Source of the DNA: Candidatus Omnitrophota bacterium
GTDB taxonomy: Bacteria > Omnitrophota > Gorgyraeia > Tantalellales > Tantalellaceae
Length of the DNA: 64,000 nucleotides
Reading direction: 5' to 3'
NCBI GenBank assembly: GCA_043812935.1
Contig: JBDRLO010000040.1
Location: forward strand, 7,779 to 71,778
The notes beneath the pieces are model-generated. The model saw nothing but the letters and a program-made list of their open reading frames with translations. It ran no database searches and was not told where the DNA came from. The translations under genes and the position numbers were made by a program. Below, one piece after another: positions 3,586-53,427 of the stretch (positions within the stretch are counted from its first letter, which is position 1; every line of letters begins with the position of its first letter).

Positions 3586-4944
3586 CTAAGTACATACCAC
3601 TATAACTGTAATATCATCATGCTGAGCAGCTTTACCGGTAAAATCTGCGACAGCTTTATGTAATGCCGCAACAACCTGTCTGGAATTGCAATTTTTTAAA
3701 TTTTTAACCAAATCAAGTATTCGTTCCTGCCCAAACATCTCTTCTCTTGTGTTCATAGCTTCTGTTATGCCGTCAGTATATAAAAGAAACATACTTCCTT
3801 TTTTATATTTTTTAGTGTTTTCAGAGAAATTCCCCTTCATCAGCCCCAGAGGCATCCCCTCTTTTGTATTAAGCAGTTCAACATTTCCGTCAGGTTCCAC
3901 AAGAATGGCAGGCAAGTGTCCCCCAACAGCATAAGTAACGCTGCCGGCAACAACATCAAAAATCATATACGTCAATGTTACAAAAAGATTATTCCCGCTG
4001 TTTTCAGAAATAAGGCGTTCGTTGACATTTTTTAAAATTTCTCCGGCTGAAATATCTCTGATAAAAGTTTTAAACACGCTTACAACTCTTGCCATATAAA
4101 GAGCCGCGGGAACTCCTTTACCCGATACATCGCCTATCATAATTCCAACTTTATTGTCTTTAAGCGGCACAATATCATATAAATCTCCGCCTACCTGACG
4201 TGCTGTCGCCATTTCAACATCTATATCCATCCCTGTAATCACCGGAATCTCTTTAGGCAAAAAGCTTCTCTGAATATCTTTCGCGATATTAAGTTCTTTT
4301 TCTATTAATTCCCGCTTTTGGATTTCAGTTACGTATTTTTTAAAAGTAAATATAACATAAATCACAACCACGCTAATTAAAGGAAAAAAAACATCTACCC
4401 ATATTCCAAACGGATAAAAAAGTGCCATAGCGATTACAATATAGCCCGCTATAATAAAAAAAATAGATAATACTCCAAACCGTTTACGAACCCGTCCGGT
4501 AATATAGGCCGTGCATCCCCATAAAAGAATGAGAACCGCAAGATTCCACCATCTATTTAAACGTTTCAAAAAATTATGACCGGCAATACTGTTATACACG
4601 CTGGCGTTAATGCCAACCCCAGGATAAAGAGTCTGCATAGGCGACGGATTTGTATCCGGAACAGTACTTGCCGTTAACCCGATAAAACACTTTTTGCCCT
4701 TGAAATCGTCTAAATTTACTTCCGGTTTCTGGCCTGTAACTTCAGCTAAATATGACTGTAGAATTTGCACATAAGAATACCGCTTAAAGGATTTTTCCCA
4801 CTTTGAAGGATAATTAATAATCATGGATGAATCTTCATTTAACGGAATAACAAAATCATCAGCGACTATCATTCTTTTTCCGGAAACAATCTCAATCTGA
4901 TCAAAACGATATCCAAGGTCATTAATCGCGGCAAGTACGGCCAA
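3586..4944 (-). CDS. C-terminal fragment of split sensor: end of CHASE2, TM helices, PP2C/SpoIIE-type serine phosphatase
   Basis: GGDLYD, MIGDVSGKGVPAALYMA and LLYTDGITEA phosphatase motifs. The listed start is an internal TTG; the frame stays open upstream to 5052. Confidence 0.8.
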   Translation of the reverse strand: MAVLAAINDLGYRFDQIEIVSGKRMIVADDFVIPLNEDSSMIINYPSKWEKSFKRYSYVQILQSYLAEVTGQKPEVNLDDFKGKKCFIGLTASTVPDTNPSPMQTLYPGVGINASVYNSIAGHNFLKRLNRWWNLAVLILLWGCTAYITGRVRKRFGVLSIFFIIAGYIVIAMALFYPFGIWVDVFFPLISVVVIYVIFTFKKYVTEIQKRELIEKELNIAKDIQRSFLPKEIPVITGMDIDVEMATARQVGGDLYDIVPLKDNKVGIMIGDVSGKGVPAALYMARVVSVFKTFIRDISAGEILKNVNERLISENSGNNLFVTLTYMIFDVVAGSVTYAVGGHLPAILVEPDGNVELLNTKEGMPLGLMKGNFSENTKKYKKGSMFLLYTDGITEAMNTREEMFGQERILDLVKNLKNCNSRQVVAALHKAVADFTGKAAQHDDITVIVVCT

Positions 4945-5038
4945 CTGGGGATAATTCTTTCCCTCATATTTAATATATGGAAGTATATTACGAATTTTAC
5001 CGTCAGAATCCTGAACTAAATTTATAAAGCCAGTGCCT

Positions 5039-5506
5039 TTAGCATTTTTTTTTCAGGATTTCAACCAAAGGAGCGACATATCCTACGGCAAAAATTTTCT
5101 CATTTTCAAAACCGCCTTTTTCCAGATCAAAGATATAAGGTAAATATACTATCCCCGCGTTTTTTACGGCTTTCGCTAATTCTTCATCTTCCTTCTTGTC
5201 TTCGCTGAAAAATACATCAAAAACAATTGTATTTGCTCCGGAAACACCTAAAATTTTTACTAAAAGCGCGTGATAGTTACGAATAAAAGGCCATCTTCCC
5301 AATTTTTTTATCGAACTATCATCTATTTCAATTACAACGATATCCTCATTAACTTTTTGCAAAGGCCGTAACCTGTACCTAAAATCAAGCATGCTGTATT
5401 CAAAGTCATCAAACGTCCGAAAATAAGACATACATAACAAAAGCCCTGCTATAAATGTTATTAAGCATACATATTCTATTTTCGCCTTGTTAAAACGTTT
5501 TAACAT
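5039..5506 (-). CDS. N-terminal fragment of the same sensor: signal-anchor TM plus start of CHASE2 domain
   Basis: IVVIEIDDSSIKKLGRWPFIRNYHALLV is a typical CHASE2 start. The ORF ends in an A9 tract (5045-5053); removing one A fuses it to 3586-5052. Confidence 0.75.
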   Translation of the reverse strand: MLKRFNKAKIEYVCLITFIAGLLLCMSYFRTFDDFEYSMLDFRYRLRPLQKVNEDIVVIEIDDSSIKKLGRWPFIRNYHALLVKILGVSGANTIVFDVFFSEDKKEDEELAKAVKNAGIVYLPYIFDLEKGGFENEKIFAVGYVAPLVEILKKKC

Positions 5507-5529
5507 ATTAATATTTGTCCGGGATAAAT

Positions 5530-6123
5530 TTATTCGCCTTTAAATAAAAGTTTCCATGGATGTGTTTTTACATCTTCGCTAAACTCTTTAAAATTTGCAG
5601 TAGTAGCTTCAAGATTCCCAACTATGTTATTCAACCCTTGCCTGTTGTCAGTTACAATATCCTTCACTTCTACTAAAATCTGATCAAGATTATTAGCAAT
5701 AGCATCGGCTTTTTTCATCAAAAGACGCATCTGTATGGGGTCTTCACTTTGAATAACATCGTTGTTTTTGCAAAACTCATTTGAAAGTCCCGGCGTTAAT
5801 CCGAGATACGCGTCACCAACAAATCCAGCTGTCCCAATGTACGCAATTGAATCTTTACGTATTTTTGTACCAGAGGCGATTTCAAGCGTGCAAACCACAG
5901 TTGTTTCCGGAGTATAGCTGAACTCCGCCCTTTTTAACCTTCCGACTTCTATCCCTGAAAGTTTTACAACAGCGTTAGGTTTAAGATCCCCGGCATATTT
6001 GAAAGATGTTTTAACATCATAAGTTCTTGTATTAAAATTAGCTGTCTTTACATAAAAGATTACTCCAATAGCAATCGCTACAATTATAACTAATCCAGCC
6101 TTAATTTCATTAGAAAATTTCAT
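5530..6123 (-). CDS. mlaD: MlaD-like MCE-domain protein (outer-membrane lipid asymmetry ABC system, substrate-binding component)
   Basis: N-terminal TM followed by an MCE fold (VKLSGIEVGRL). Start chosen at the ATG preceded by AGGGAGA. Confidence 0.8.
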   Translation of the reverse strand: MKFSNEIKAGLVIIVAIAIGVIFYVKTANFNTRTYDVKTSFKYAGDLKPNAVVKLSGIEVGRLKRAEFSYTPETTVVCTLEIASGTKIRKDSIAYIGTAGFVGDAYLGLTPGLSNEFCKNNDVIQSEDPIQMRLLMKKADAIANNLDQILVEVKDIVTDNRQGLNNIVGNLEATTANFKEFSEDVKTHPWKLLFKGE

Positions 6124-6171
6124 ATAATTCTCCCTTTTTTTAATAATACTCACTACCTCTAATGCGCTGGT

Positions 6172-6999
6172 TTACCTTATTAAATGTTCCAAATAATCAT
6201 CTCTTTGCTGAAAAAAACGTATCGGGCCATCGTGACTGCCGGTTATAAACTGACGAATTACTGGATTTTCCGATTTTTTAATTTGAACCGGAGTACCAAT
6301 TTCCAATATCTTTCCGTCATACAGCATCGCAACCCTGTCTGCAATGGACATAGCGCTCTTCATATCATGCGTAACAACAACACTTGTAATTGAAAGTTTT
6401 TTGGAAAGATCTATAATAAGCTTATCAATCACTGCGGCTACTATGGGATCTAACCCTGATGTAGGTTCATCATAAAAAATAATCTGGGGATCCATTGCTA
6501 TTGCCCGCGCAAGCCCGACTCTTTTACGCATACCTCCGGAAAGTTCACTGGGCATAAGATCTTCAAACCCGCGAAGACCGACAAGTTCCAATTTCATCCT
6601 GACAATAATATCAATAACGCTTTTCTGAAGTTTCGTATGCTCTTTCAATCCTAATGCAACATTCTCCGCAACGGTCATGGAATCAAATAAAGCCGAGGAC
6701 TGAAATGACATACCTATTTTTTTACGAACATTATCCAAATCATCGCCGAAAAGATCGGTTATATCTTCTCCAAGCAAAAAAACTCTGCCGGAATCAGCTT
6801 TAAGCGTCCCTATCATATGTCTTAAAAGTGTGCTTTTCCCGCACCCGGATCCCCCCATCACAACAAAGGTTTCCCCTCGATATATTTCAAGATTTACACC
6901 GTCCAGCACATTTCGTCCGGCAAATTGTTTCACAAGATTTTTGGTTTGTATTACAACTTCTCGTTTTCCCATAAAAATTGTTCCAATACTTTTATACAT
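6172..6999 (-). CDS. mlaF: Mla-type ABC transporter ATP-binding protein
   Basis: Walker A GGSGCGKST, signature LSGGMRKRV, Walker B IIFYDEPTSGLD. Confidence 0.88.
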   Translation of the reverse strand: MYKSIGTIFMGKREVVIQTKNLVKQFAGRNVLDGVNLEIYRGETFVVMGGSGCGKSTLLRHMIGTLKADSGRVFLLGEDITDLFGDDLDNVRKKIGMSFQSSALFDSMTVAENVALGLKEHTKLQKSVIDIIVRMKLELVGLRGFEDLMPSELSGGMRKRVGLARAIAMDPQIIFYDEPTSGLDPIVAAVIDKLIIDLSKKLSITSVVVTHDMKSAMSIADRVAMLYDGKILEIGTPVQIKKSENPVIRQFITGSHDGPIRFFQQRDDYLEHLIR

Positions 7000-7789
7000 T
7001 GGAGAAATAAAAAAGCCCTGTTAAAATACAATCAAAAATAACAATAAGTATAAAACTTATTACAACACTCAAAGTTGTAGCTCTACCCACACCCTCTGCC
7101 CCTCCACGAGTGTTTAATCCTACATGACAGGCTATCATAGAAATAATAATTGAAAAAACCACGCTTTTCGCTAAACCTGTCCATACATCTTTCCAGGTTA
7201 AGAAATCAAAAGAAAAAGATACATACCGGTAAGGATTAAGCTGAAGATTAAACACTCCGACGATAAGTCCGCCGAGAATGCCAACAATATCACTCATCAC
7301 AGTAAGACACGGAAGCATGATAAGCAGCGCCAAAAACCGCGGAACCACTAAAAACCGCACAGGGTTAAGCGCCATGGTTTCTAATGCCTCTATTTGCTCA
7401 GAAACCTGCATAGTCCCTATTTCAGCGGTTATCGCCGACCCCACCCTGCCGGTAACAACAAGCGCCGCAAAAACAGGCCCAAGTTCCCTAGCCATACTTA
7501 TACTTACCATTGGAGCGACATAAATTACTGCACCCAGCTGTTTAAGCTGATATGCGCTTTGCATTGCAATAACGATACCTGTAAAAAGAGAAATAAAGAA
7601 GACAATAACTACGGACTGAACACCAGCAAACACCATTTGATGAAAAATACTCTGACGGCCGGCTGATTTACCTTTAAACGGTCCGACTATAGCCCACCAA
7701 AGCGTGTCAACAAAAAGTGACAACACATCAACCGTATTTCTGGCAAAATTAAACGCTATTACGCCGATAACATTGACAGGATTTTTCAT
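6992..7789 (-). CDS. mlaE: Mla-type ABC transporter permease
   Basis: 265-aa polytopic protein with the MlaE/YrbE pattern (GPVFAALVVTGRVGSAITAEIGTMQVSEQIEAL). Confidence 0.88.
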   Translation of the reverse strand: MKNPVNVIGVIAFNFARNTVDVLSLFVDTLWWAIVGPFKGKSAGRQSIFHQMVFAGVQSVVIVFFISLFTGIVIAMQSAYQLKQLGAVIYVAPMVSISMARELGPVFAALVVTGRVGSAITAEIGTMQVSEQIEALETMALNPVRFLVVPRFLALLIMLPCLTVMSDIVGILGGLIVGVFNLQLNPYRYVSFSFDFLTWKDVWTGLAKSVVFSIIISMIACHVGLNTRGGAEGVGRATTLSVVISFILIVIFDCILTGLFYFSNV

Positions 7790-7818
7790 TATCTGTTCTT
7801 TTTAGGGTTACGTTATTA

Positions 7819-8157
7819 TTACATATCAAAAGAGTTCATTGCTTCGTCTTCTTTATCTAAAATATCGAATAATTGTGTTAATTTTGTAATCTCAAAAAGG
7901 CCTTTAACTTTAACAGATAAATTAGTAAGTTTTAGTTTACCGCCATGTCTATTTAAATTCTTCAAAATTTCAACCAGCGTAGCAAGCCCTGAACTATCAA
8001 TATAATCCACCCCTTTTAGGTCTATTAGAATGTATATTTTCTCATTTTTTATTACTGCCTCTAAAGAATCTTTTAAAGCCGGAGCTGTATTAATATCAAT
8101 ATCACCAGCCATCCTAAGAATTGATATCCCGCTTTTTTCTTCCATCCTTATATCCAT
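7819..8157 (-). CDS. STAS-domain protein (anti-sigma-factor antagonist type; possibly MlaB-like)
   Basis: 112 aa; LIDLKGVDYIDSSGLATLV carries the conserved phosphorylatable DSSG motif. Confidence 0.85.
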   Translation of the reverse strand: MDIRMEEKSGISILRMAGDIDINTAPALKDSLEAVIKNEKIYILIDLKGVDYIDSSGLATLVEILKNLNRHGGKLKLTNLSVKVKGLFEITKLTQLFDILDKEDEAMNSFDM

Positions 8158-8187
8158 TCTACTCCTTACGTTACGTTATAAATATTT

Positions 8188-8595
8188 TCAATCCAAAAAT
8201 TTTATCATCACTATTCGCTTGCCGCCTTTTTCAAAAGTAACTCTATCCATCAGATGTTTAATTAAATATACACCACGGCCGTTTTCTTTCAAAAGATTTT
8301 CATCAAGAGTTGGATCCGGAAGATAGGAAAAATTAAAACCTTCTCCTTCATCTTCAACACATATTGTCATTTGGCCGTTTAATATTTCGGCTTCCACTAT
8401 AATTTTTTTTCGCATATCCAATTTATTGCCATGGATCATGGCGTTACGCAAAGCTTCTTCCAAACTTACGTAAATATCAAAAATAATTTCTTCATCAATT
8501 TTGGACTTTTTTAAATTTTTAATCAGTTTTTTACTGATTTTTTTTAATAACCGGCTATTCGTAGGGATCACGTTTCTAACCACTCTCATCATCAC
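8188..8595 (-). CDS. RsbW/SpoIIAB-like serine kinase (HATPase_c_2)
   Basis: N-box [13 protein letters not shown]1 VEDEGEGF, G2 [14 protein letters not shown]-type 4-nt overlap with the accA stop. Confidence 0.82.
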
Positions 8596-16465: not shown

Positions 16466-17041
16466 TTAATTAAAAACCTTTATTTTTAGCTTTGTTATCT
16501 CTATTTCTTTTTTAAGTTTGTTTTTTTCAGAAATTTGAGCTTCTTTTTTTTCAACAAGCATTGACAGCCTGTCATTCCATACTTTCATTTCTTCCGGAGT
16601 TAACGCTAGAACATCCTTTTTTTTCATTAAAGAATTAATTTCTTTTATATCATTTTCTATACTGCGTAAAGTTTCTTTTTTTTGTTTGTAGCTATACTCC
16701 AACTCAATAATACTTTTTTGAAAAACACGCTTTTCCGGCTGGATTTGACACTTAACATCATCCGTCTGTACCGAATATTCATTCTCAAGCTGACGTTTTT
16801 GTTCCTGTAAAATATTTATGCGGACATCTATTTCTTCTTTTTTCTTAAGAAATTCCGTTCTCTTCTCATCTAATCTTTTATGAAGACCATTCCTTTTATC
16901 CAAAATCTTTTGAAAAGAAGGATCATGTTCCAAAATTGTTTTCTCTATTTCTCCGGTATCAGAACTACATCCTTGAAATAAAAAAGTTGTAAGAATAATT
17001 ATACAAACTAAAAATTTCGTCTTGCTTAAATGTAAAAACAT
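16466..17041 (-). CDS. coiled-coil lipoprotein, unknown function
   Basis: Lipobox LFQGC after a hydrophobic segment. The remainder is K/E-rich with heptad character. Start chosen at the ATG with AAGGAA. Confidence 0.6.
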   Translation of the reverse strand: MFLHLSKTKFLVCIIILTTFLFQGCSSDTGEIEKTILEHDPSFQKILDKRNGLHKRLDEKRTEFLKKKEEIDVRINILQEQKRQLENEYSVQTDDVKCQIQPEKRVFQKSIIELEYSYKQKKETLRSIENDIKEINSLMKKKDVLALTPEEMKVWNDRLSMLVEKKEAQISEKNKLKKEIEITKLKIKVFN

Positions 17042-17180
17042 AGCGTTTTTCCTTCTTTGTTTTTCCATAAAAAGACAAAAGCAAAAAAGAAAACATCTTA
17101 ATTTAACACCTTCTCCGCCAATTTCCCATTTTGCCTAAAATAATTCCAAAGTACCGATGCTGAAACTTAAGTTTATATTA

Positions 17181-17480: not shown

Positions 17481-18848
17481 TTATGAGAGAAATATACTTG
17501 CAGTAGTTAAGTAAATAAACACACCAATAACATCATTAAGAGTGGTAATAAGCGGCCCGGAAGCTATTGCCGGATCTATCCGCATTTTTTTAAAAATAAC
17601 AGGGATTACAACCCCGACAAAATTAGACCACACTACAACTAAAAAGATTGAAAGCCCCACAATCATACCGACTACACTGTTTTTCATCCAGATATTCGCC
17701 AAAAAAGTTAATACCGTGCCGCAAACAAGACCTAATCCCAAGGCTATCTTTAACTGACGCCACACCTCATCCAAAACATGAGAATATACCATATGCCCTA
17801 AAGCTATTCCACGAACAACAACCGTTGAGGCCTGCACTCCGCTATTACCGCCTGTTGCCGTAATTACCGGAATAAAAGAAACAAGCGCAATAGTTTCCGT
17901 GAGAGTTACTTCATAAAGCTGTATTACAAGACCGGTAATAATGCTTCCTACCATACATGTAATAAGCCATGGAAGCCTGTTTTGAGTGGCTTTTAAAGTA
18001 GATTCTGTTCCCTGTTCCTCTTCAATCGTACCAGTCATCCTGCTAATATCTTCAGCATGTTCTTCATCAACAACATCCATAATATCGTCCACTGTTATAC
18101 GCCCGACTAAACAACCTTCATTATTAATGACCGGCAAAGAAAAAAGATCATATTTTTTCATAATTAGGGCCGCTTTTTCCTGATCTGCATCAACCAGAAT
18201 AGAATGAATGTCTCTTTCCACGATATCTTTAATCAGAGTACCCTTATTAGCGGTTAATAATTTCCAAATTGTAACCGCCCCCTGAAGTTTCATGTTTCCA
18301 TCAACAACATAGACATATATAAACTTTTCTTCTACTTCAAAATTTCTCATATGCCGGACGGCATCTTCAACATCATTATTTTCACGGACAAAAATAAACT
18401 CCGGATTCATAACACGGCCTGCGCTGTCCTCCGGATAACTAAGAATTTCCTCTACCTCTTCCGCGTCTTTCTCTTCCATCAAATCAAGAATATCCTCACG
18501 ATTCTCTTCCGGAACTTCTTCGACAACATCCGCCGCTTCATCAACAGGCATCTCATCTAATACTCTTGCCAGTTTATCATTATCAATTTTCTGCAGGATC
18601 TGCAGCCGGGTTTGAGGATCGGTATCATCAAGCACAACCGCAGCATTTTCCGCGGGAAGCGCATTAAATATATGTATTTTTTCTTTACTGCTAAACTCAC
18701 CCAGGATTTCGGCAATATCTTCGGGTTCTGTGGATTCTAAAAATGCTTCCAGTTCCGCGGAACGGTCTTCTTTTAAAAAACTCTTTACATTTTTAACAGC
18801 ATCTTCTCTGTTCCAAAATTCCTTATTATTTTTTTTACCATTTTTCAT
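17481..18848 (-). CDS. mgtE: magnesium transporter MgtE
   Basis: N-domain, tandem CBS, and a TM domain with GGNSGVQ and PLITTLNDV motifs. Start at the ATG with GGTGA. Confidence 0.92.
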   Translation of the reverse strand: MKNGKKNNKEFWNREDAVKNVKSFLKEDRSAELEAFLESTEPEDIAEILGEFSSKEKIHIFNALPAENAAVVLDDTDPQTRLQILQKIDNDKLARVLDEMPVDEAADVVEEVPEENREDILDLMEEKDAEEVEEILSYPEDSAGRVMNPEFIFVRENNDVEDAVRHMRNFEVEEKFIYVYVVDGNMKLQGAVTIWKLLTANKGTLIKDIVERDIHSILVDADQEKAALIMKKYDLFSLPVINNEGCLVGRITVDDIMDVVDEEHAEDISRMTGTIEEEQGTESTLKATQNRLPWLITCMVGSIITGLVIQLYEVTLTETIALVSFIPVITATGGNSGVQASTVVVRGIALGHMVYSHVLDEVWRQLKIALGLGLVCGTVLTFLANIWMKNSVVGMIVGLSIFLVVVWSNFVGVVIPVIFKKMRIDPAIASGPLITTLNDVIGVFIYLTTASIFLS

Positions 18849-20899: not shown

Positions 20900-23800
20900 A
20901 TGAAAAGAATAAGCAAACTAATATCAATTTTACTGTCTTTTATTTTTTTAACTGGGCAGGTGCACCCTTCTTATGCTGGGCACAACCTTGCAATATGGTC
21001 CGCACATGATGCCGCGCCAATGAACAAGACAACTAACAACATCGTAAAAAGGCTAAAACCACACGCGGTCGGAAATGGTATACCTCTATTGAATTTGGTA
21101 CAAGGCACTCTTCCGGAACAAATGAAACTCGGCTCAAGTCCCCAGAAAGATATTATTAACAAAATACAAAAGGCAATAGAACTAGCCATAGCACTTCATA
21201 TAAAGAATCGTCATAAAATACCCTCAAAACACAAATTGAGAGCAGAAGAAACTTTAAAAAATTTATTTTTGTTTCAAGCACATCTCAAAGATAACTTATA
21301 CATGTATAACGCGTCAGAAACAGTAACAAGCCCTGAAGATTATTTGTTAGGCTTCATATGGCCGCACCAGATTCCCGGGTTTACAGGTTCTAAAGCATTG
21401 GGCAAAGACCCGGTCATCCTAAACAGACTGTATTCCGAATCCGTGCGCCTTTTAGCACAGGATATCTATCATGACTGTATTCCTGAACATCTCAAAATTG
21501 TAGACGGAAAACATGGTGAAGAAGTAGACCGTACAGATCACAAAATAAATTACCAGGAAATTCAAAGAGCTATCTTCAACGAAACAGATGAATCCGGAAG
21601 AACAATCAAAGATGAAGTAAAAGAATTAGGGGATTTTTACCGCAACATTATTGATGAACAGGTATTCTTACACCATGACATAGGCACTGTGCTCCAAACT
21701 ATATTAAAAAAACAGGCAAAAGAGCCTGCAGATTTACAGCCTGTGTTACAACATATTATGGATAACACCTTAAATCCAATAGTGTTAACAATAGTTTCCG
21801 GAGTAAAATATATTACAGCAGAAGCAAATACTACTTCTTTTCAAATGGAATTTACGTACCTACAAAAAAAAGCTCAAGATGACAAAGAATCAGACATTGA
21901 AAGAACATTGGCATATAGCGCTTTATATCTCAGAAATACAAATTATTCACGCACAAAAGCAATAAGTTTTTTTGAAACCATACGAAACCCCTCTGCTAAA
22001 AAAATAGCCCAGGAAACATTAAACAATCAGGGGCATACTTTATGTGAAATATTATTTAAAACACGCCGCGAGATATTTGAAAAAAAATATGATTATTTTA
22101 TTCAATTTTTGTCCGATGAAAAAAAATTAAAAATATCTACGGACATAAGTTATTCTATTTCTCAAATATGGAAAAATATTGATCAAAAGCAGCCTTTTTC
22201 AGATAAAACTCAGAACGAATTAAAAAAAATTGTGGGATTAGATAAATTTTTAAATAAAAATAATTTAACACTTGTTGCAGCAGCCTGCTACCCTGTATGT
22301 TTTGCGAGATTGTTTTATGAAGAAAATTCCGGCTACATTATTAATTTTATAAAACAGGTTAGAAAAATTCCGGACAAAGATGAAAAAATGGCAAGATTCC
22401 GTGAACATGTCTTGAATCATCCCAATTTTTTAAGCTTGTATTTTACCAGCATCTTCTTAAACCCGAAGTTTTTTTTACAAGCGAAAAAAGAACAAAAAAA
22501 GCGATTTGCTTTAGGCGTTGAGAGCCTTTATAGCCCCGCCAAGCAACTTCCAGATACACTTTTAAAAAACGGGGTGCGCATTGTCTTTGATGGTTCAAAC
22601 AGAATCGAACAATTTGTAACATTTTACCGCAGGACTAAACAATATGAAAAAGCACTGAAAATTGTGGATATAAGCATTCAAGGCTCTAAACACATTCAAC
22701 AACTTACACCTTCACAAAATCACATAGAAAGAATTGATAAATTAACAAGCGAAAAAGCCGCTATCATAAAAGAACGAAACAAATCTTCTGTTTTGATAGC
22801 ACATTTAAAAAATCTCCTGCAGGATCCTGACTCTATAGAGTATAATTCGCGAATTAACAAAATTATAGAAAAGATTAGTTCCGATACTAATAGAACAAGG
22901 CTTGACGGATACAATGAGTTATTACGGATACCTAATATTTTGCAAAGTATCAACAACAACAAAAAAATACCAGCATTCGATTTGGTTTATGAAGAAGTTT
23001 CTTCGCTTTTTGAAGTTTTATACGCGGAAAACCATGAAACAGACGTGACCGACTTAGGCCTATGCTCGCTTCTTTTGATGCACATTGCATATATTCATAC
23101 ACAAAAAAAAACTAACCAAAAAAGGATAAAAGAAATCATCGACACACTTAAAAAAAAGGCAAAAGTATATAATGATAACGGCCTTTTTACAGCTATATCA
23201 AATATTTTACTGATTAGAAAACAATATAAAGAAGCTGAAAACTTTATTAACCGGATAGAAAATACAGTCGCAAAAGCGGGAGAATTGCAACATTTAGCGG
23301 AAACATATTTAATGAACGGTAATCCCCAAGAAACTCGCCGAATTATTGATAAAATTAGCGATCATATCCTAATTTTATCTGCTCAAGAATTTCCTAACTC
23401 ATGTGATAAAAGGATTGTATCTGCCATAAAAATGTTTACATCCGAAACTTTAAAAAAATTACACCAAATGCTGCCTGAAACTAAAGAAAATCAACCGTCC
23501 CCTAAAAACCTTGAACCTGACCTAACATACAATGCCGAACTTTTTAAATACAATTTAACAGAATGGCGAAGAAAACATCCAAATGAGATGTTACTCTTAG
23601 CATTTGATACGGATATTGGACAAGATCAAAAAAATCATCTGATGCCAGTATGGAAAATTGTAGATGAAGTTAAAAAAATGAGAGATTCTGAGGGAAAGCT
23701 ATTGTTCCCCAAAGATAAATTTAAAGTCATAAGGCGGGATGGTTCAACGGGACGCTTAATGCAGGAAATAAACACGTTTTTAGATAATAAAAAGGTTCTC

Positions 23801-24151
23801 AAACAAAACATTTTTCTGATCGGCCGACAAACAAATATAAAAGCTGGGCAATTTGATAGCCTGAAAGGCGCGTCATGGATAACCGCAATAGATGACGTCT
23901 TAACAAAAGATGCAGTATATATCCCGGTATTTGAAGCCCTTATACTAACTATGATGACAGCATTTAACGCCGACTCTGACAGCATAAAAAGATTTTATGA
24001 TAAAATTTCATATGAATCTGCCACATTAGAGGAAATAGAGAAAATGAAGATCTCACAATTGATATATATCCTGCCAAAAATGATTAAAAGAAGCCCTCGA
24101 GAACTGAAAAAGATATATGAATTGGAATTTGATATCTACTCAGCAGTTTAA
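20900..24151 (+). CDS. large secreted/periplasmic protein of unknown function (1083 aa), helical-repeat rich
   Basis: Signal peptide MKRISKLISILLSFIFLTGQVHPSYA followed by an LAIWS box. TPR-like helical middle; C-terminal alpha/beta-looking module. No enzyme motif recognised. Confidence 0.7.
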   Translation: MKRISKLISILLSFIFLTGQVHPSYAGHNLAIWSAHDAAPMNKTTNNIVKRLKPHAVGNGIPLLNLVQGTLPEQMKLGSSPQKDIINKIQKAIELAIALHIKNRHKIPSKHKLRAEETLKNLFLFQAHLKDNLYMYNASETVTSPEDYLLGFIWPHQIPGFTGSKALGKDPVILNRLYSESVRLLAQDIYHDCIPEHLKIVDGKHGEEVDRTDHKINYQEIQRAIFNETDESGRTIKDEVKELGDFYRNIIDEQVFLHHDIGTVLQTILKKQAKEPADLQPVLQHIMDNTLNPIVLTIVSGVKYITAEANTTSFQMEFTYLQKKAQDDKESDIERTLAYSALYLRNTNYSRTKAISFFETIRNPSAKKIAQETLNNQGHTLCEILFKTRREIFEKKYDYFIQFLSDEKKLKISTDISYSISQIWKNIDQKQPFSDKTQNELKKIVGLDKFLNKNNLTLVAAACYPVCFARLFYEENSGYIINFIKQVRKIPDKDEKMARFREHVLNHPNFLSLYFTSIFLNPKFFLQAKKEQKKRFALGVESLYSPAKQLPDTLLKNGVRIVFDGSNRIEQFVTFYRRTKQYEKALKIVDISIQGSKHIQQLTPSQNHIERIDKLTSEKAAIIKERNKSSVLIAHLKNLLQDPDSIEYNSRINKIIEKISSDTNRTRLDGYNELLRIPNILQSINNNKKIPAFDLVYEEVSSLFEVLYAENHETDVTDLGLCSLLLMHIAYIHTQKKTNQKRIKEIIDTLKKKAKVYNDNGLFTAISNILLIRKQYKEAENFINRIENTVAKAGELQHLAETYLMNGNPQETRRIIDKISDHILILSAQEFPNSCDKRIVSAIKMFTSETLKKLHQMLPETKENQPSPKNLEPDLTYNAELFKYNLTEWRRKHPNEMLLLAFDTDIGQDQKNHLMPVWKIVDEVKKMRDSEGKLLFPKDKFKVIRRDGSTGRLMQEINTFLDNKKVLKQNIFLIGRQTNIKAGQFDSLKGASWITAIDDVLTKDAVYIPVFEALILTMMTAFNADSDSIKRFYDKISYESATLEEIEKMKISQLIYILPKMIKRSPRELKKIYELEFDIYSAV

Positions 24152-24693: not shown

Positions 24694-26151
24694 TTATAAT
24701 TCTATAACCGGTTCATTTTCTGAATCGAATTCAGAATCAAGCATGCGGGAACTTGCCTGCCAGACTTCATAATCTTCGTCGGCAAGTTCTTCTAAAAACC
24801 GGCTTCGCGGCGCGCTTACAGCGCCTAACTGATAATCATAACGCATAGCGGGATGCACCATATATAAATATTTTCTAGCCCGTGTAACAGCAACATAAAA
24901 AAGACGTCTTTCTTCTTCCATTTCAGCTTCGCTATTCGATGATTTTGAATGAGGAAACTGCCCGTCACAAAGCCCTATAAGAAATACTGCATCCCACTCC
25001 AACCCTTTTGCCTGGTGAATAGTTGAAAGCACAAGTTGTCCGGTCTCTTCAGAAAATGAAAAAGCGTTTGTCTCCCCGCGGAAACCTTCCTGAAGAGACG
25101 TATCGTTAACAAAATCCTTAACTGTTTCATAATCATGTGAAAAATTCACAAGTTCGCGAATATCTTCAATTCGTTCTTTAGCATTTTCATACGCCGCTAA
25201 AACATGCATTTCATATCCTGAATCCAATATTCGTTCCACAATATCAGCAATGTTTGTTTCACCGCGAATATCCGAAGTTATTGCCCGCATTATTTTCTGA
25301 AAAACCGAATATCCTGCCTGCACTTTTGAGGGGAACACTCCAGACACATCATCAGAAACAAACTGGTTTATACTTTTACCTTCCTTTTTAAAACGTTCAT
25401 AAATCTTTGCGGCATATCCCGGACCGATACCAGGCCAAAGCGTCAAGGCCCTGATCCAGGAAGTTTCATCCAAAGGATTAGCCAGAATTTTCATGTATGC
25501 TAATACGTCTTTTATATGCGCTTGTTCAAAAAAACGAAGCCCCCCGCGAACAACATAAAAAATCCCTCGTTTAACCAGTTCCATTTCAAGTTCCGCAGAT
25601 TGATAATGCGCTCGAAAAAGAACAGCAATATTTTTTATATCAACACCTTCGTCCAAAAGCTCTTTTATCCTTTGGACGACAAAAGATGCCTGGGAATACA
25701 AATCTCTAACTTCAACAAGAGCGGGCATTGAAAGAGATTCATTCACGGTTTTCAGTTCTTTTTGAAACTGGTTATCATTATTTAAAAGTGAATCATTTGC
25801 AAGAGCAACAATTTCAGGAGTAGAACGGTAATTTGTTTCCAGTTTAAATACTTTTACATTATCAAACTTTTCAGGAAATTTAAGTATATTTTCGACTCGC
25901 GCGCCCCGGAAGGAATAAATAGACTGCGCGTCATCGCCCACTGCCAGAATATTTTTGTGTTTTTCGCCGAGAATATCAATTATTTCCGCCTGCAGATAAT
26001 TCGTATCCTGATATTCGTCAACCATTATATATTTAAACTTGTCACTAAACTTCTCTCTTACTTCTTTTACATTTTCCAGCAAATATTTCCAGTTAATCAA
26101 AAGATCGTCATAATCCATATTTTCTGTTTCGCGTTTTTTCTTTTCATACAT
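24694..26151 (-). CDS. UvrD/PcrA-family helicase, N-terminally truncated paralogous copy (lacks the Walker A domain)
   Basis: 485-aa intact ORF starting at MYEKKKRETENMDYDDLL, which aligns to about residue 195 of the upstream copy. Contains VDEYQDTN, TNYRST, TIHQAKGLEW and VAVTRA motifs. Confidence 0.75.
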   Translation of the reverse strand: MYEKKKRETENMDYDDLLINWKYLLENVKEVREKFSDKFKYIMVDEYQDTNYLQAEIIDILGEKHKNILAVGDDAQSIYSFRGARVENILKFPEKFDNVKVFKLETNYRSTPEIVALANDSLLNNDNQFQKELKTVNESLSMPALVEVRDLYSQASFVVQRIKELLDEGVDIKNIAVLFRAHYQSAELEMELVKRGIFYVVRGGLRFFEQAHIKDVLAYMKILANPLDETSWIRALTLWPGIGPGYAAKIYERFKKEGKSINQFVSDDVSGVFPSKVQAGYSVFQKIMRAITSDIRGETNIADIVERILDSGYEMHVLAAYENAKERIEDIRELVNFSHDYETVKDFVNDTSLQEGFRGETNAFSFSEETGQLVLSTIHQAKGLEWDAVFLIGLCDGQFPHSKSSNSEAEMEEERRLFYVAVTRARKYLYMVHPAMRYDYQLGAVSAPRSRFLEELADEDYEVWQASSRMLDSEFDSENEPVIEL

Positions 26152-26321: not shown

Positions 26322-28365
26322 TCACAACTCTATTATGGGTTCTCTTTCTGAATCAAATTCTGGATTCAACATCTGGGAACTTGCCCGCCAGACTTCATAA
26401 TCTTCACCTGAAAGTTCTTCTAAAAACCGGCTTCGAGGCGCGCTTACGGTTCCCAACTGGTAATCATACCGAGTACACGGATGCATCATATATAGGTGTT
26501 TTTTTGCTCTTGTCACGGCAACATAAAAAAGACGTCTTTCTTCTTCCATTTCAGCGTCACTATTCGCTGACTTTGAATGCGGAAACTGTCCATCGCAAAG
26601 ACCGATGAGAAATACCGCATCCCATTCCAATCCTTTTGCCTGGTGTATGGTTGAAAGTACTAGCTGACTGGACTCTTCTGAAAACGAAAAAGCGTTTGTT
26701 TCGCCACGAAACCCCTTCCTGGAGAGAAGTATCACTCACAAAATCTTTAATCGTTTCATAATCGTGCGAAAAATTTACAAGTTCCCGAATGTCATCAATT
26801 CGTTCTTTCGCGTTTTCATACGTTGCTAAAACATGTGTTTCATACCCTAAATCTAATATGCGTTCCACTATGTCCGCTATATTTGTTTCGCCGCTTATGT
26901 CCGAAGTTATTGCTCTCATTATTTTTTGAAAGATTGAATACCCCGCGCGAACTCTTGCAGGAAACGCGATAGACACATCGTCCGAAACAAACCGGTTTAT
27001 ACTTATGTCTTGTTTTTTAAAAAATTCATAAATTTTCGAGGCATATCCCGGGCCGATCCCCGGCCAAAGGGTTAATGCCCTTATCCATGAAGTTTCATCC
27101 AGCGGATTAGCCAGAATCTTCATGTACGCTAACACGTCTTTTATGTGCGCTTGCTCAAAAAAACGCAGTCCCCCGCGAACAACGTAAGAAATCCCGCGTT
27201 TAACCAATCCCATTTCCAATTCCGCAGATTGATAATGTGCCCTAAAAAGAACGGCAATGTTTTTTATATCAACTCCCTCGTCCAAAAGTTCTTTTATTCT
27301 TTGGACAACAAAAGACGCCTGAGAATATAGATCTCTAACTTCAACAAGAGCAGGCATTGAAAGAGATTCATTCACTGTTTTTAATTCTTTTTGGAACTGG
27401 TTATCATTATTTAAAAGCGAATCATTAGCAAGCGCTACAATTTCAGGGGTAGACCTATAATTAGTTTCTAATTTAAATATTTTTACGTTATCGAATTTTT
27501 CGGGAAACTGTAATATGTTTTCGACCCGTGCCCCTCGAAAAGAATAAATAGATTGCGCATCGTCACCTACGGCCAAAATATTTCGATGTTTTCCGCCAAG
27601 AATATCAACTATCTCAGCCTGCATATAATTTGTGTCCTGGTACTCATCAACCATTATATACCTAAATTTGTTACTGAATTTTTCTCTTACTTCTTCTACG
27701 TTCTCAAGTAAATACTTCCATCTAAACAAAAGATCGTCATAATCCATGTTTTCTGTTTCGCGTTTTTTCTTTTCATACATATCTTTTATTTTGTTTATTT
27801 CGTCCTTGAATTTAAAAAAATAAGGATATCGCGCATCTAATACTTTTTCCAAAGTTCTTTTTGTGTTTACCGAAAGGCTTATTATCGCTTGCATCACAGA
27901 CGCCTTCGGAAACTTTTCGCCTTTAGGCAAGGCTTTAACAACTGTCTTCGTACAACTTTTTATCAAGTCACGTGAATCCTGCTGGTCTAAAATACCAAAA
28001 TCTCTTGTAAACCCTATCTTTTCAGCGTACATTCTGAGGGTTCTATTACCTACATGATGAAACGTTCCGCTCCACAACCCTTTCGGGCTATACCTTAAGA
28101 GTCTCTCCGTCCGTTCCCGCATTTCCCGAGCGGCTTTATTCGTAAAAGTCATAAGAAGTATATTTTGAGGAGGGACTCCCCGTTCTAAAAGATAGGCCAA
28201 CCTGTAAATCAAGGTTCTAGTTTTACCGCTTCCGGCACCCGCAAGGACAAGACAAGGCCCTTCCGCCTGCGTAACAACTTCATACTGTTGTTCGTTAAGG
28301 CTCTCCGCAAAATTTATGTGCGTTTCTATGGTTTCTGAACTTTCGTTTAGGATATATCTCTTCAT
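26322..28365 (-). pseudogene. UvrD/PcrA-family ATP-dependent DNA helicase, full length but interrupted by a 1-nt frameshift
   Basis: Walker A AGAGSGKT, VDEYQDTN, and so on. ORFs 26560-28365 and 26322-26735 overlap. Relative to copy A there is one extra C in the run at 26712-26715 (minus strand CAGGAAGGGGTTT versus CAGGAAGGTTTC). Confidence 0.8.
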
Positions 28366-28686: not shown

Positions 28687-31263
28687 ATGTTAAAGAAAAT
28701 TATTTCAATACTACTTGTTTGTGCGTTTTCATTAAATACATTGGCATTTGCAAATAGCGGAGAAATGTTGGCCGCTTGGTCAATGTTTGATAATCCGCAG
28801 GATGAGCAATTGATTAGGATAGGAATTTTAAATTTAATGGAGCAGTGGAAAGAATATCCATGGGCATTCAGTACAGGAATGCCGGTAGACATTGAAACTT
28901 CCGTCAACGGCAAAAAACTGGTTGTATGTCTATCCTATCCGATAAAGATGAGCGACACAGCTGCTGGTTCTATATTCCAGTGTTTAATTGGGCAAAATAA
29001 ACGTAAATATTTTGTGTTTATTGATCCGTTGACTGAAAATCCTAATATTCATGATCGACGAATTCATGTTTTTAATTATTTGGAAAATTTAGAAAAATTC
29101 GAACCGCAAAATATAGAGAAATACGTACTGCATGAAATATGTAAAGATAAGCTTCTTCGAGAATTACATGAAAAATCTGTTGATGGGAAACGTTCTGACC
29201 TGATAAGACTTGGAGCAGAAAGTATTCCTATGCGTAACGTCATTGACTTCGTCGATGCGCTCGAGCATACATTATTAAAAATGAATCCGATAGATCACCA
29301 GTGGGGTCCTATTACCACTGAATTGATTCAGTTTTGCAACGGAAACTTGAAACATGGAAAGATTACCGGCGTATTTAAAGTTACCGGGCATGATGATCTT
29401 CCTTCCGGCGAGATTGACCATGCTTCAAATATTGCTATCCATGTGAAAGACAGAGTGGACAAAACCAAATTGGAATTAGCAATCTTACATGAGGTATTTG
29501 CTAAACTCGGAATTCCGGATTTTATCAACAATACCCCGGAACTCGCATATCTATTGAGGGACGAATATATAAATTGGAAAAATAAGGCAAAGTTTTATCC
29601 TGAAAAAATAAGAGACAAGATCGGAGTGCTTTCAAGATGGAAAATAGAACTTGAAAATAGCCGGTTTGTGGATATGGATACCCTAAGAAACAGAGATTTG
29701 GCAATGCCTGACAACCCGCGCCAACATACATCTGATAATTGGGAAGACGTGAAAGTTTCTTCCGATCCGCCTGAGTCTTTAATGGATGCCTTCAATTGCA
29801 CCAATCTTGATGATATTCTTTGGCTTTCTGCTCATGATGCGAATCACCTTCAGAATTATATGACCACAAGTACCGATAAAACTGCGGACATTTCTGCGTT
29901 ATTAAGCTATATCACAGGGAGAAATCACACTGTAATGGATAAATGTGTCTCCGCTAATGGAGATTTCTATATTTTTACCGAAAGTAGAAATAACTTTGGT
30001 AATAGTGATTTAGTCTTGTGGAGGTTACTAGATAATGGGGAAAGGATTCTTATCCCAAAGATCAATAAAGGATGGGCATTCAGGAGTACTCGTCCGAACA
30101 TAACACGTAACGCAAGTTTAGCTGTTCATAAAAATGGATCAGTTATAGTGGGAACAGTTGACGATGGATTTGTGAGGATTTATAGCAATGGGTACATGGT
30201 TAACGCGTTACGAGTAGATAATGGATCAGTCAATGTACAAATAACAAGAAATGGGGGAATTGCAATTGCTACGGGGAATGATGTTAACGGAGACGGCATA
30301 ATTTATTATGTACGATTCAATACTTCCGACACAGAAACTGTAGCAAAACATTTTCAAATCACAGATAAAGAGGTCAATATAGAAAATGTCATAACATGTG
30401 ATGACGGCAGAATCTTCATAACGGGAGTTTCAGATGATGGAATGATAAAAGTGTGGAGAATCGAAAAAGATGATACGATACATTCTATAGAGTTCAATCA
30501 CGCAGAAGCGAAAATTAAGGAAATTAAGCCGTTTATTAACGATAAAGGCATTTTCTGCATATCATTCAAAAATGTAAAAAACAATCATACATATCTATCA
30601 CGTATAGACAAAACAGGTGAAGTGACTTCATCTTTGAAAGAGGAGGTTATCGCAGAACAGATACATAGAAAGAACATTGAGATTGGACGTGAGATTGCCC
30701 CAAGTATCGGAGAAAAACAAGTACTTTGCCACATTATTGCAGATTCAATTATTCCAGGCGAACTCGAAAAACAAATGCTACAGAAGCTTGAACAGGAAAC
30801 AAGGAAAGATAAATATAGCGAAAAGATATTCCGGCTGGAAGTTAAAGATACTGAGGATTTTGTAGAGAAATTGACAAAAGAAATGAACGATCTGAGAAGC
30901 AATTATAAGGAAAAAGGGATTGAGGTTATATTCGATGTGGCTGTACCCGACACAGGTATCAATAAGAAAATAGAGAAAAAACTAAAGACAAAAGTGCTGG
31001 CGTTCCGGGTGAATAAAAAAAGTTTTGTGTATGTAGAAAGTATTCTCCTGGCTCTTCGAGCTTTACATTCGAACAGTCTGAATAGACTTTATGAAGTACA
31101 TAAATTGATAACGGGCACAGAATTAAAACCTTCAAAAGACATCACCAATATACAGGATTTTATGAGAGAAGTGGTTTTTGACCTGCCATATTGCCGATAT
31201 CTTGACTATGAGATCCGAATAAACTTAAATAACAATATCAAGGAAATGATAAAACATGCGTAG
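28687..31263 (+). CDS. large secreted protein of unknown function (858 aa) with a beta-propeller-like middle region
   Basis: Signal peptide MLKKIISILLVCAFSLNTLAFA followed by an LAAWS box. Repeats such as DGFVRIYSNG and DDGMIKVWRI; C-terminal alpha/beta-looking module. RBS AAGGGAG. Confidence 0.7.
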   Translation: MLKKIISILLVCAFSLNTLAFANSGEMLAAWSMFDNPQDEQLIRIGILNLMEQWKEYPWAFSTGMPVDIETSVNGKKLVVCLSYPIKMSDTAAGSIFQCLIGQNKRKYFVFIDPLTENPNIHDRRIHVFNYLENLEKFEPQNIEKYVLHEICKDKLLRELHEKSVDGKRSDLIRLGAESIPMRNVIDFVDALEHTLLKMNPIDHQWGPITTELIQFCNGNLKHGKITGVFKVTGHDDLPSGEIDHASNIAIHVKDRVDKTKLELAILHEVFAKLGIPDFINNTPELAYLLRDEYINWKNKAKFYPEKIRDKIGVLSRWKIELENSRFVDMDTLRNRDLAMPDNPRQHTSDNWEDVKVSSDPPESLMDAFNCTNLDDILWLSAHDANHLQNYMTTSTDKTADISALLSYITGRNHTVMDKCVSANGDFYIFTESRNNFGNSDLVLWRLLDNGERILIPKINKGWAFRSTRPNITRNASLAVHKNGSVIVGTVDDGFVRIYSNGYMVNALRVDNGSVNVQITRNGGIAIATGNDVNGDGIIYYVRFNTSDTETVAKHFQITDKEVNIENVITCDDGRIFITGVSDDGMIKVWRIEKDDTIHSIEFNHAEAKIKEIKPFINDKGIFCISFKNVKNNHTYLSRIDKTGEVTSSLKEEVIAEQIHRKNIEIGREIAPSIGEKQVLCHIIADSIIPGELEKQMLQKLEQETRKDKYSEKIFRLEVKDTEDFVEKLTKEMNDLRSNYKEKGIEVIFDVAVPDTGINKKIEKKLKTKVLAFRVNKKSFVYVESILLALRALHSNSLNRLYEVHKLITGTELKPSKDITNIQDFMREVVFDLPYCRYLDYEIRINLNNNIKEMIKHA

Positions 31264-35000: not shown

Positions 35001-36077
35001 TTATCCTTTTTTTAAAAGATCTTCAAAAAGCTCTAAAAACCTTTCTGCTGTCGGTTCAGCGGAATAATCTTCCAAATATCTCCGCATATATTTCTGTTGT
35101 TCCTGATATTTTTTACCTTTTTCAAACACATCCACAAGGTTTTCTTCTAAATCGTAAAAATCATGATGTTTTATAATTTCGTTACTAAAAGAATACGTAA
35201 AATTCGAATCCAGGGCAAGAATCGGACAACCGGATCCTAAACATTGAAAAATCGTACTGCCGACTACAACCGTAGGTTTTGACTCTTTATTGTAAATCAT
35301 ACAATCCGAAGCGTAAAGATAATCATACAATAAATCCAGATCCGGAGACTTTTCAATAATTTTAAAATCAAACTTTATCTTATTCTGAATTCGTTTAAAA
35401 GCTTTTAAAACATTTTCTACTTCCGTCACTAAAAGCAGTGTAATATCATATTTGTCTGCCAGTCGATCTAAAACCATTGTGGTATTTATGGCATGTTCCG
35501 CGGCCTGACCGAATAGAAGCACAATTTTCCTGTCTTTGGGAAGATTTAATTTTTCACACGCCTTATTCTTGTTACCCAGCTTTAATGAAAACGACGGATA
35601 AGGAATAATACTTAGTTTTCCTTCAGGATAAGCCTCTTTCAAGAATTTCTGATACCTCTCATCAAAACACACTACATGATCCCATTCAAATTTAAAAAAT
35701 TCAGGTTTGGTCGAAAGTTCGCCGTCATGAACAATATTAACAGTTTTAGCCTTTTTTCTTATTTCAGGAAATATTGCCAACAATTGTCGCATAGGAATCA
35801 TTCCGAGATCCTCGACAACAAAAATATCAAAATCTGATTCCAGTATAGGCGCAATATCTATTTCCGGATTCGGCACACCATAAACAGTAAAACAACGCTT
35901 CACATAACTCTCTTCTTCATCAGCTTTCTTTGTCAGCGCCGTACCATGAAAACTGTGCCGATAAAATGAAAACACTTTCAGATCAATGCCTTTTTCAACC
36001 CAAGCTCTGCCGATAAGTTCCGCATGTATTGATGCGCCGGAATCTGTGTTCCAGGCACACATCATTCCAATCTTCAT
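35001..36077 (-). CDS. putative GT-B-fold glycosyltransferase, family unclear
   Basis: 358 aa with two Rossmann-like halves; no canonical E-x7-E seen. The call rests on the pattern and gene context only. Confidence 0.45.
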   Translation of the reverse strand: MKIGMMCAWNTDSGASIHAELIGRAWVEKGIDLKVFSFYRHSFHGTALTKKADEEESYVKRCFTVYGVPNPEIDIAPILESDFDIFVVEDLGMIPMRQLLAIFPEIRKKAKTVNIVHDGELSTKPEFFKFEWDHVVCFDERYQKFLKEAYPEGKLSIIPYPSFSLKLGNKNKACEKLNLPKDRKIVLLFGQAAEHAINTTMVLDRLADKYDITLLLVTEVENVLKAFKRIQNKIKFDFKIIEKSPDLDLLYDYLYASDCMIYNKESKPTVVVGSTIFQCLGSGCPILALDSNFTYSFSNEIIKHHDFYDLEENLVDVFEKGKKYQEQQKYMRRYLEDYSAEPTAERFLELFEDLLKKG

Positions 36078-49560: not shown

Positions 49561-49584
49561 TATTCTTCCTTTCTGCTTATCACA

Positions 49585-53344: not shown

Positions 53345-53427
53345 ATTTATCTACATTTCAGGTTCCACGCCACACACTACACGTTTTGCATCCAGTACAA
53401 CCCCGGGGATTGTCTTACAAATTGTCC

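Follow-up and report, generated by a model that had tools for sequence, protein, structure and literature searches.

A partner-switching module encoded together with an Mla-type transporter in Omnitrophota

The gene cluster and its components

The stretch of DNA analysed here, referred to below as the window, comprises 64,000 nucleotides of a metagenome-assembled genome (MAG) of a Candidatus Omnitrophota bacterium (GenBank assembly GCA_043812935.1, contig JBDRLO010000040.1, positions 7,779 to 71,778). Its list of open reading frames (ORFs) holds nine on the minus strand between positions 11003 and 3586, among which Pfam and NCBIfam assignments, all with strong scores, give the order accA, a serine kinase gene, a gene for a STAS protein, mlaE, mlaF, mlaD and the gene of a CHASE2-PP2C phosphatase, that is, the genes of a partner-switching module placed around those of an Mla-type ABC transporter. 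This order on one strand and the tight spacing of the genes, both named in the original prediction made from the sequence, are confirmed by the assignments and by the ORF coordinates. The features of the region are the following (coordinates are those of the window).

11003-10530, minus strand: DUF212/PAP2-like protein (ORF with Pfam assignment)
10555-9587, minus strand: LysM-YkuD L,D-transpeptidase (ORF with Pfam assignment)
9548-8592, minus strand: accA, acetyl-CoA carboxylase carboxyltransferase alpha (PF03255, 498 bits; NF004344, 500 bits)
8595/8592-8188, minus strand: RsbW/SpoIIAB-like serine kinase (GHKL, HATPase_c_2) of 134-135 amino acids (aa) (PF13581, 83.7 bits)
8157-7819, minus strand: single-domain STAS protein of 112 aa with Ser55 in Y-I-D-S55-S-G-L (PF01740, 88.7 bits; PF13466; TIGR00377)
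7789-6992, minus strand: mlaE, permease of an Mla/MCE-type ABC transporter (PF02405, 266 bits; TIGR00056, 246 bits against a cut-off of 212)
6999-6172, minus strand: mlaF, ABC ATPase with an LSGGM signature and a C-terminal 'handshake' extension (PRK11831, 248 bits; MlaF chains in the PDB)
6153-5530, minus strand: mlaD, short MCE-domain protein with one transmembrane helix (PF02470, 54 bits; TIGR04430, 78.8 bits, cut-off 135)
5506-5039, minus strand: CHASE2 sensor phosphatase, N-terminal fragment with a transmembrane helix and the beginning of the periplasmic CHASE2 domain (PF05226, 76.5 bits, profile positions 2-99)
5045-5053, minus strand: A9 homopolymer (T9 on the plus strand) with a +1 insertion that splits the phosphatase gene (alignment to the related locus L004)
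5052-3586 (listed ORF 4944-3586; frame open from 5052), minus strand: remainder of the phosphatase, with the C-terminal part of CHASE2, three transmembrane helices and a cytoplasmic PP2C (SpoIIE) domain (PF07228, 159 bits; PF05226, 54 bits)
3566-3538, minus strand: terminator-like hairpin of 11 pairs, 8 of them G-C, followed by a T run, 20 nt past the phosphatase stop codon

The stop codon of accA overlaps the start of the kinase gene at 8592-8595, the remaining junctions measure 23-30 nt, and mlaE and mlaF overlap or, with another choice of start codon, are 19 nt apart. The kinase likely starts at the ATG at 8592, its NCBI protein being 134 aa long, while the true starts of mlaF and mlaD are probably the ATG codons at 6972 and 6123, respectively; mlaD of the relatives begins at an MK(L/F)SNE motif. 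The kinase and the STAS protein have counterparts of 100% identity among the NCBI proteins of a Candidatus Omnitrophota MAG. The strong hairpin at 3566-3538 probably marks the point where the operon of the source genome ends. A hairpin follows the phosphatase gene in the closest relative, L004, as well, and is absent from most other relatives. In several relatives the gap between the phosphatase gene and gpmI amounts to 10-15 nt, and only 7 of 27 such gaps are terminator-like; since the terminator is not general among the relatives, gpmI may be co-transcribed with the cluster in many of them.

Two of the components of a partner switch, a STAS protein with a phospho-acceptor and an adjacent GHKL kinase with N, G1 and G2 boxes, are both present. 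The kinase aligns to RsbW of Bacillus subtilis (PDB chain 6m36_A) through the N box, G1 (EDEGEGF) and G2 (GRGVYL), and 76-78 of the 78 relatives retain its residues E46/E47, H55 and G106-R107-G108. In the STAS protein the YxDSSGL motif, including D54-S55-S56-G57, is invariant (78/78), helices α2 and α3 are almost so across the family, and the mean column identity is 70%. The protein scores 95.7 bits with the anti-sigma-antagonist model TIGR00377 (cut-off 53), and the profile of its family reaches SpoIIAA, RsbV and TM1442 in the PDB. Its AlphaFold2 model (predicted local distance difference test score, pLDDT, 92.9) has the topology β1 β2 α1 β3 α2 β4 α3 β5 α4, with α2 starting at residue 55, and the best Foldseek matches of the model are again SpoIIAA, TM1442 and RsbV (TM-scores of 0.88-0.91), the first of them being SpoIIAA in complex with SpoIIAB. 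As to the third component, a PP2C phosphatase with an input domain, its domains are present and its gene is frameshifted in the window and intact in 57 relatives. The module proposed originally, consisting of a phosphorylatable DSSG motif, an RsbW-like kinase and a CHASE2-PP2C phosphatase, is complete as judged by these motifs and, for the phosphatase, by the intact gene of the relatives.

The description of the phosphatase as a single ORF extending from 5506 to 3586 proved incorrect: the gene comprises two ORFs in different frames, parted at the A9 run. Its alignment with L004 (84% identity over 1907 nt), which reads CTG-AAAAAAGATGCT at the site of the run, contains exactly one gap, the extra A, and deletion of this nucleotide yields an intact ORF of 639 aa. 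The PP2C domain spans the SpoIIE profile end to end (PF07228 positions 2-190 of 192), its translation contains the motifs GDLYD, GDVSGKG, TDGITE and DDITV, and the second CHASE2 piece matches positions 150-255 of the PF05226 profile (54 bits). Each of the 57 relatives with the gene has it as a single ORF of ca. 640-660 aa. The frameshift in the source MAG represents either an error of sequencing or assembly or a gene inactivated recently. If it is real, the switch would be broken in the source genome with the STAS protein locked in the phosphorylated state, or else the A run would act as a slippage-prone on/off switch. The single +1 insertion in the A9 run is in line with such a defect, as is a second split gene in the window, that of a UvrD-like helicase, which has no long homopolymer at its break; nevertheless, the phosphatase gene bears no other defect (there is no further gap against L004 and all the catalytic motifs are intact), it is intact in each of the relatives mentioned, and an indel in a homopolymer is a typical assembly or sequencing error, so that we regard a broken switch as rather doubtful.

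The split UvrD-like helicase gene consists of two ORFs that overlap and differ in frame, in the region of 26322-28365 and 24694-26151 (minus strand). Its pieces are 601 aa (UvrD N-terminal domain and positions 2-253 of the UvrD_C profile) and 137 aa long (UvrD_C positions 282-346), and the ORF next to it codes for a second UvrD-like protein, beginning at profile position 176. Together with the split phosphatase gene, the split helicase gene indicates that the source MAG carries more than one frameshift or truncation.

The mla genes code for an MlaE-family permease, an ATPase with the LSGGM signature and a C-terminal extension, and an MCE protein, so that all parts of the MlaFED core are found in one operon. 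The scores reached with the equivalog models of the E. coli type are below the cut-offs for both MlaF (248 against 441 bits; PRK11831 is its best NCBIfam match) and MlaD (78.8 against 135). The best PDB matches of MlaF are the MlaF chains of Acinetobacter baumannii, Pseudomonas aeruginosa and Escherichia coli (E-values of 1e-70 to 1e-61), and no gap interrupts the alignment of its C-terminal extension with those of the same three proteins. In this alignment Y269, L273 and I274 correspond to Y261, L265 and L266 of E. coli MlaF, residues that dock in the MlaB-MlaF groove in the crystal structure (PMC7367683). Y269 does not vary among the Omnitrophota relatives, 56/58 of which retain L270 and L273. 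Unlike in the proteobacterial Mla systems, no mlaC or mlaA gene was found in the 64-kb window, none of its Pfam-scanned ORFs containing an MlaC or MlaA/VacJ domain.

Conservation of the cluster in Omnitrophota

The conservation of the order of the STAS, kinase, mlaEFD and PP2C genes, a survey of which had been proposed with the original prediction, was assessed in a pattern scan with one genome per species, which gave 531 genomes with a relative of the STAS protein; the best 80 loci were annotated with phmmer. The denominators given below are the numbers of loci with enough contig sequence to show the respective feature. The best 80 of the 531 loci all belong to Omnitrophota, some of them labelled 'uncultured Planctomycetia', and in every search Omnitrophota fill the best 80 loci and the best 120 proteins listed. 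The kinase gene directly precedes the STAS gene in 80/80 loci and mlaE directly follows it in 73/73 genome loci; mlaE-mlaF-mlaD are present in 65/65 loci, accA stands before the kinase gene in 68/68, and a CHASE2-PP2C gene lies downstream in 31/35. The median intergenic gaps within the cluster range from 1 to 33 nt. An independent metagenome sample, 80 contigs out of at least 459 matches, agrees with the genomes in the kinase-STAS (62/64) and STAS-mlaE (46/49) adjacencies. The split of the phosphatase gene aside, the arrangement is real, phylum-wide and previously undescribed.

The overlap at the upstream end of the module is conserved too, with a median gap between accA and the kinase gene of 1 nt (81 loci); accA, whose product is the first committed enzyme in fatty-acid synthesis, is therefore coupled in translation to the kinase gene of the module. 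At the other end the phosphatase gene directly follows mlaD in 27 loci and is separated from it by 1-4 genes in 28, so that it stays at the end of the cluster even though between 0 and 4 accessory genes vary between the two. In 28 of the 55 phosphatase-bearing genome loci 1-3 secreted proteins, each with a FecR domain and a highly charged C-terminal tail, are encoded between mlaD and the CHASE2-PP2C gene, and the same insert carries the gene of a BBP2_2-type outer-membrane β-barrel ending in YYSF (for example L001, 10739-13499). The FecR-domain proteins and the barrel could form a trans-envelope input to CHASE2; neither was found anywhere in the 64-kb window. In four loci that form a small clade (L031, L040, L046 and L049) leuS and a competence-protein gene follow mlaD in place of the phosphatase gene. 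The same clade has a distinct C-terminal motif in MlaF, FFM..(E/D)(G/N)YLEELT, and keeps the kinase and the STAS protein with invariant catalytic and DSSG motifs.

The STAS protein and the output of the module

In the proteobacterial MlaFEDB complex (E. coli YrbB; PDB 6XGY, 6XBD) the STAS protein is MlaB, which is required for the stability and activity of MlaF and binds its helical subdomain by the same helical face that SpoIIAA uses to bind its kinase; T52 of E. coli MlaB lies at the centre of the interface, and its T52E substitution weakens the binding (PMC7367683). Like MlaB, the protein from the window is a single-domain STAS protein encoded in an mla operon, its partner ATPase bears a conserved C-terminal extension, and it passes the broader STAS_2 model PF13466 (50.5 bits against a threshold of 29.2). 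In both proteins a Ser or Thr residue is found at the N-terminus of helix α2, as S55 is located opposite T52 in the alignment with E. coli MlaB (the sequence used was verified to be identical to 6xbd_K). The identity of the two proteins is only 26%. The proteins also differ in gene position, the Omnitrophota STAS gene being upstream of mlaE and the proteobacterial one ending the mlaFEDCB order, and in that the former protein has a dedicated kinase and phosphatase, neither of which is reported in the papers on MlaB that were consulted (PMC7367683). From the alignment it appears that the Omnitrophota protein could still play the same role as MlaB. The equivalence of the two proteins that had been proposed is therefore retained as regards the positional match of S55 with T52 and the location in an mla operon, and abandoned as regards membership in the MlaB family, which neither sequence nor fold bears out.

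The best single explanation of the cluster, to which we give somewhat less than an even chance, is a partner-switching module with the Mla transporter, and not a sigma factor, as its output. It rests on the gene context, the positional equivalence of S55 and T52 and a weak co-evolutionary signal. In the mechanism that we infer, including the contact between the STAS protein and MlaF, the sense in which phosphorylation acts and the kind of signal, the unphosphorylated STAS protein would bind the helical subdomain of MlaF via the helical face α1-α3 centred on Ser55, as MlaB does, and thereby stabilise or activate the MlaFED complex. The RsbW-like kinase would bind the same face and phosphorylate Ser55, blocking the binding to MlaF, and the CHASE2-PP2C protein, on detecting an envelope signal with its periplasmic CHASE2 domain, would dephosphorylate Ser55. 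This detection may be assisted by the adjacent FecR-like periplasmic proteins and the outer-membrane barrel in those relatives, about half of the total, that encode them. If the STAS protein binds MlaF in the manner of MlaB, the kinase and MlaF would be its mutually exclusive partners, which would make the system a partner switch in the literal sense.

The link between the STAS protein and MlaF was examined in a mirror-tree analysis with Kimura distances, in which partial correlations were calculated controlling for AccA. STAS-MlaF was the top pair of the STAS protein in all three AccA-controlled sets (0.47 for n = 51, 0.29 for n = 58 and 0.27 for n = 78), followed by STAS-kinase (0.21-0.25 across the sets, 0.21 for n = 78), while STAS-MlaE and STAS-MlaD were near zero (0.07-0.18; 0.07 and 0.10, respectively, for n = 78). 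In the bootstraps of the n = 78 set STAS-MlaF exceeded STAS-MlaE in 97.7% and STAS-MlaD in 98.5% of cases. The known physical pairs MlaE-MlaD, MlaF-MlaD and MlaE-MlaF score 0.43-0.59, indicating that the method has some signal. Residue covariation was calculated as mutual information with average product correction (MI/APC) from 78 paired sets (effective number of sequences, Neff, 57); the top pairs are dominated by phylogeny, G86 of the STAS protein coupling to every protein including AccA. Taken together, these sequence comparisons provide weak and by no means decisive quantitative support for a link between the STAS protein and MlaF.

Several observations weigh against the Mla transporter as the output. 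In the mirror-tree analysis STAS-MlaF is not separable from STAS-kinase (bootstrap fraction 0.31), and with the mean of all the other families as background the kinase (0.32) scores above MlaF (0.20). In the covariation analysis STAS-MlaF gave 0.52 pairs per 1000 at z > 6 against 0.70 for the AccA control. An assignment of the STAS protein as an MlaB orthologue had to be rejected, as it scores 36.7 bits with NF033618, whose cut-off is 90. No MlaB chain in the PDB is matched by the profile of the STAS family at E ≤ 0.01, and in the Foldseek search MlaB chains rank 44-50, with TM-scores of 0.58-0.69. MlaB is a minimal STAS protein with a four-stranded sheet and three helices, without β5 and α4 (Kolich et al. 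2020, PMC7367683), unlike the modelled protein, which has the full SpoIIAA-type fold including β5 (residues 98-100) and α4 (103-108). By sequence profiles and predicted structure it is thus a canonical protein of the SpoIIAA/RsbV type and not an MlaB by descent. Moreover, MlaFED works without MlaB in most phyla, and a short C-terminal extension of MlaF exists even where MlaB is absent (PMC10665443). Finally, unrelated housekeeping genes (purH, folC, mnmE, folE, DUF212, ykuD, accA and, downstream, gpmI) flank the block with equal synteny, so that gene order, generally stable in this phylum, is only weak evidence of a functional link.

Some of the same observations would fit a conventional switch with an unlinked target, in which the kinase doubles as an anti-sigma factor or another inhibitor, the STAS protein is only its antagonist, and the mla genes merely share a conserved co-directional array with them. 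The STAS protein and the kinase are nearest to RsbV/SpoIIAA and RsbW/SpoIIAB by sequence and fold, and the synteny of the neighbouring housekeeping genes equals that of the module. In Chlamydia, a member of the same Planctomycetes-Verrucomicrobia-Chlamydiae (PVC) group, an Rsb module without a dedicated adjacent sigma gene is reported to act on the primary sigma-66 (PMC4552016, PMC11619594), and the inspection of the source genome covers 64 kb. However, no sigma domain was detected by Pfam in the ca. 50 ORFs that cover nearly all of the window, and a phmmer search with SigF and RpoE queries, which is of limited sensitivity, revealed no sigma-70-family gene either in the window or in 83 related loci searched out to 10 kb from the STAS gene. 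The absence of a sigma or anti-sigma target gene, noted originally for the operon, therefore extends to the whole window, and that of a sigma gene to these loci. Classical modules adjoin a sigma gene, whereas here the mla genes hold that place, between the kinase and STAS genes and the phosphatase gene. The rates of the STAS protein, controlled for AccA, co-vary with those of MlaF at least as much as with those of the kinase, and its phospho-acceptor is located at exactly the position of the MlaB interface residue. On balance, we consider the conventional switch rather unlikely, yet a serious rival.

The Pfam-scanned ORFs of the window contain no second STAS protein, second kinase or further PP2C protein, and no paralogues of the STAS protein, the kinase, the PP2C phosphatase or the ABC ATPase were found in the window. 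In L076 a second STAS protein of 122 aa is encoded at 17505-17870 (minus strand), ca. 5 kb downstream of the cluster and beside a TonB-dependent receptor gene, indicating that Omnitrophota genomes can carry STAS proteins outside the mla operon.

It is quite improbable that the module controls another product of the operon, with the kinase or the STAS protein binding AccA or MlaE/MlaD, or the kinase phosphorylating a transporter subunit, in a link to lipid synthesis or to another transport step. The coupling of accA to the kinase gene, with the overlap seen in the window and the invariable adjacency of the two genes in the relatives, is compatible with such control, as are the weak co-variation of the rates of the kinase with those of MlaE and MlaF (0.19-0.21) and the combination of envelope-related functions in the operon (DUF212/PAP2-like, L,D-transpeptidase, accA, mla). 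Against it, the co-variation of the STAS protein with MlaE and MlaD is near zero, as given above, and the invariant phospho-site of the STAS protein points to this protein as the substrate of the kinase. To our knowledge, no RsbW-type kinase has been described that acts on AccA or an ABC subunit, and a literature search returned none.

Of the reading with the Mla transporter as the output, the part originally predicted as phospho-control of lipid trafficking has on its side the complete module, its place inside the mla operon across Omnitrophota, the lack of a nearby sigma gene, the match of S55 with T52, the extension of MlaF and the co-variation of rates, and has against it the position of the STAS protein outside the MlaB family, the equal synteny of the flanking genes, the null result of the covariation analysis and the frameshifted phosphatase gene of the source MAG. 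In its general form, the reading is that throughout Omnitrophota the Mla transporter would be gated post-translationally by a STAS protein alternating between the kinase and MlaF on the same face, with the CHASE2 phosphatase setting its phosphorylation, in many members via a FecR-like protein and barrel relay; this we put forward as possible, and more tentatively.

The module is made up of the three types of protein known from RsbU-RsbV-RsbW and SpoIIE-SpoIIAA-SpoIIAB of Bacillus, with which it has the DSSG phospho-serine motif and the N, G1 and G2 boxes in common, and these families are its best matches in sequence and structure. It differs from them in lacking a sigma gene in the operon or its neighbourhood, in the kinase-STAS order (STAS-kinase-sigma in Bacillus), in the presence of the ABC lipid transporter genes between the kinase-STAS pair and the phosphatase gene, and in its phosphatase, which is located in the membrane and carries a CHASE2 sensor in the periplasm. 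Partner-switching modules with outputs other than a sigma factor are known (bioRxiv 10.64898/2026.04.08.717354). In Vibrio SypE/SypA, Bordetella BtrU/V/W, Pseudomonas HsbR/HsbA, Anabaena HenR/All4160 and Chlamydia RsbU/V/W the STAS protein or the kinase acts beyond a dedicated alternative sigma factor; in the papers found none of these systems is tied to an Mla/MCE transporter or an ABC ATPase.

STAS genes syntenic with mla were surveyed in 1083 genomes by Grasekamp et al. (2023), who found MlaA, MlaB and MlaC to be mostly proteobacterial (PMC10665443). In Supplementary Data 1 of that paper the STAS protein KJJ84113.1 of Ca. Omnitrophus magneticus, encoded beside KJJ84114-84116 (mlaEFD), is already tabulated as 'MlaB_Cluster', the entry itself carrying no comment on a kinase or a phosphatase. 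The regulation of MlaB was described by Kolich et al. (2020) as an open question, phosphorylation being an attractive idea without evidence (PMC7367683), and MlaB goes unmentioned in a review of STAS-only proteins from 2021. Our literature search found no paper joining partner switching with MlaF or Mla. If the Mla transporter is indeed the output, the Omnitrophota module would be the first natural case of the phosphoregulation of MlaB hypothesised from the structure of E. coli MlaFB and the first partner-switching module with an ABC transporter as output, extending the list of such outputs, and it would link two literatures without mutual citation, those on STAS partner switching and on Mla lipid transport. 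The operon encodes the STAS protein, its cognate kinase and the sensor phosphatase together with mlaEFD; since all the parts of the switch are encoded with the transporter, the hypothesis of MlaB phosphoregulation is directly testable by heterologous reconstitution. If the link is only syntenic, the cluster would amount to an orphan partner-switch module of the ordinary kind within a conserved array of genes.

Other features of the window

The window contains several long ORFs unrelated to the cluster. The ORF at 59903-63991 (minus strand), which ends near the window edge, codes for a 1362-aa protein with the domain order AAA_16 (STAND-like ATPase)-TPR-GAF-GGDEF, that is, a large signalling diguanylate cyclase. 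The 1083-aa ORF at 20900-24151 (plus strand) has no Pfam match and contains seven A runs of at least 8 bases (21864-23157), while the 858-aa ORF at 28687-31263 has only a sub-threshold WD40 match; Pfam gave no match for two further ORFs, at 35001-36077 and 16466-17068. A peroxiredoxin/DsbD pair is encoded at 49072-50286, and an oxidative-stress cluster of the type found in anaerobes, comprising the genes for a thioredoxin-reductase-like flavoprotein, two rubrerythrins, a desulfoferrodoxin and a ferritin, occupies positions 52433-55885 (minus strand).

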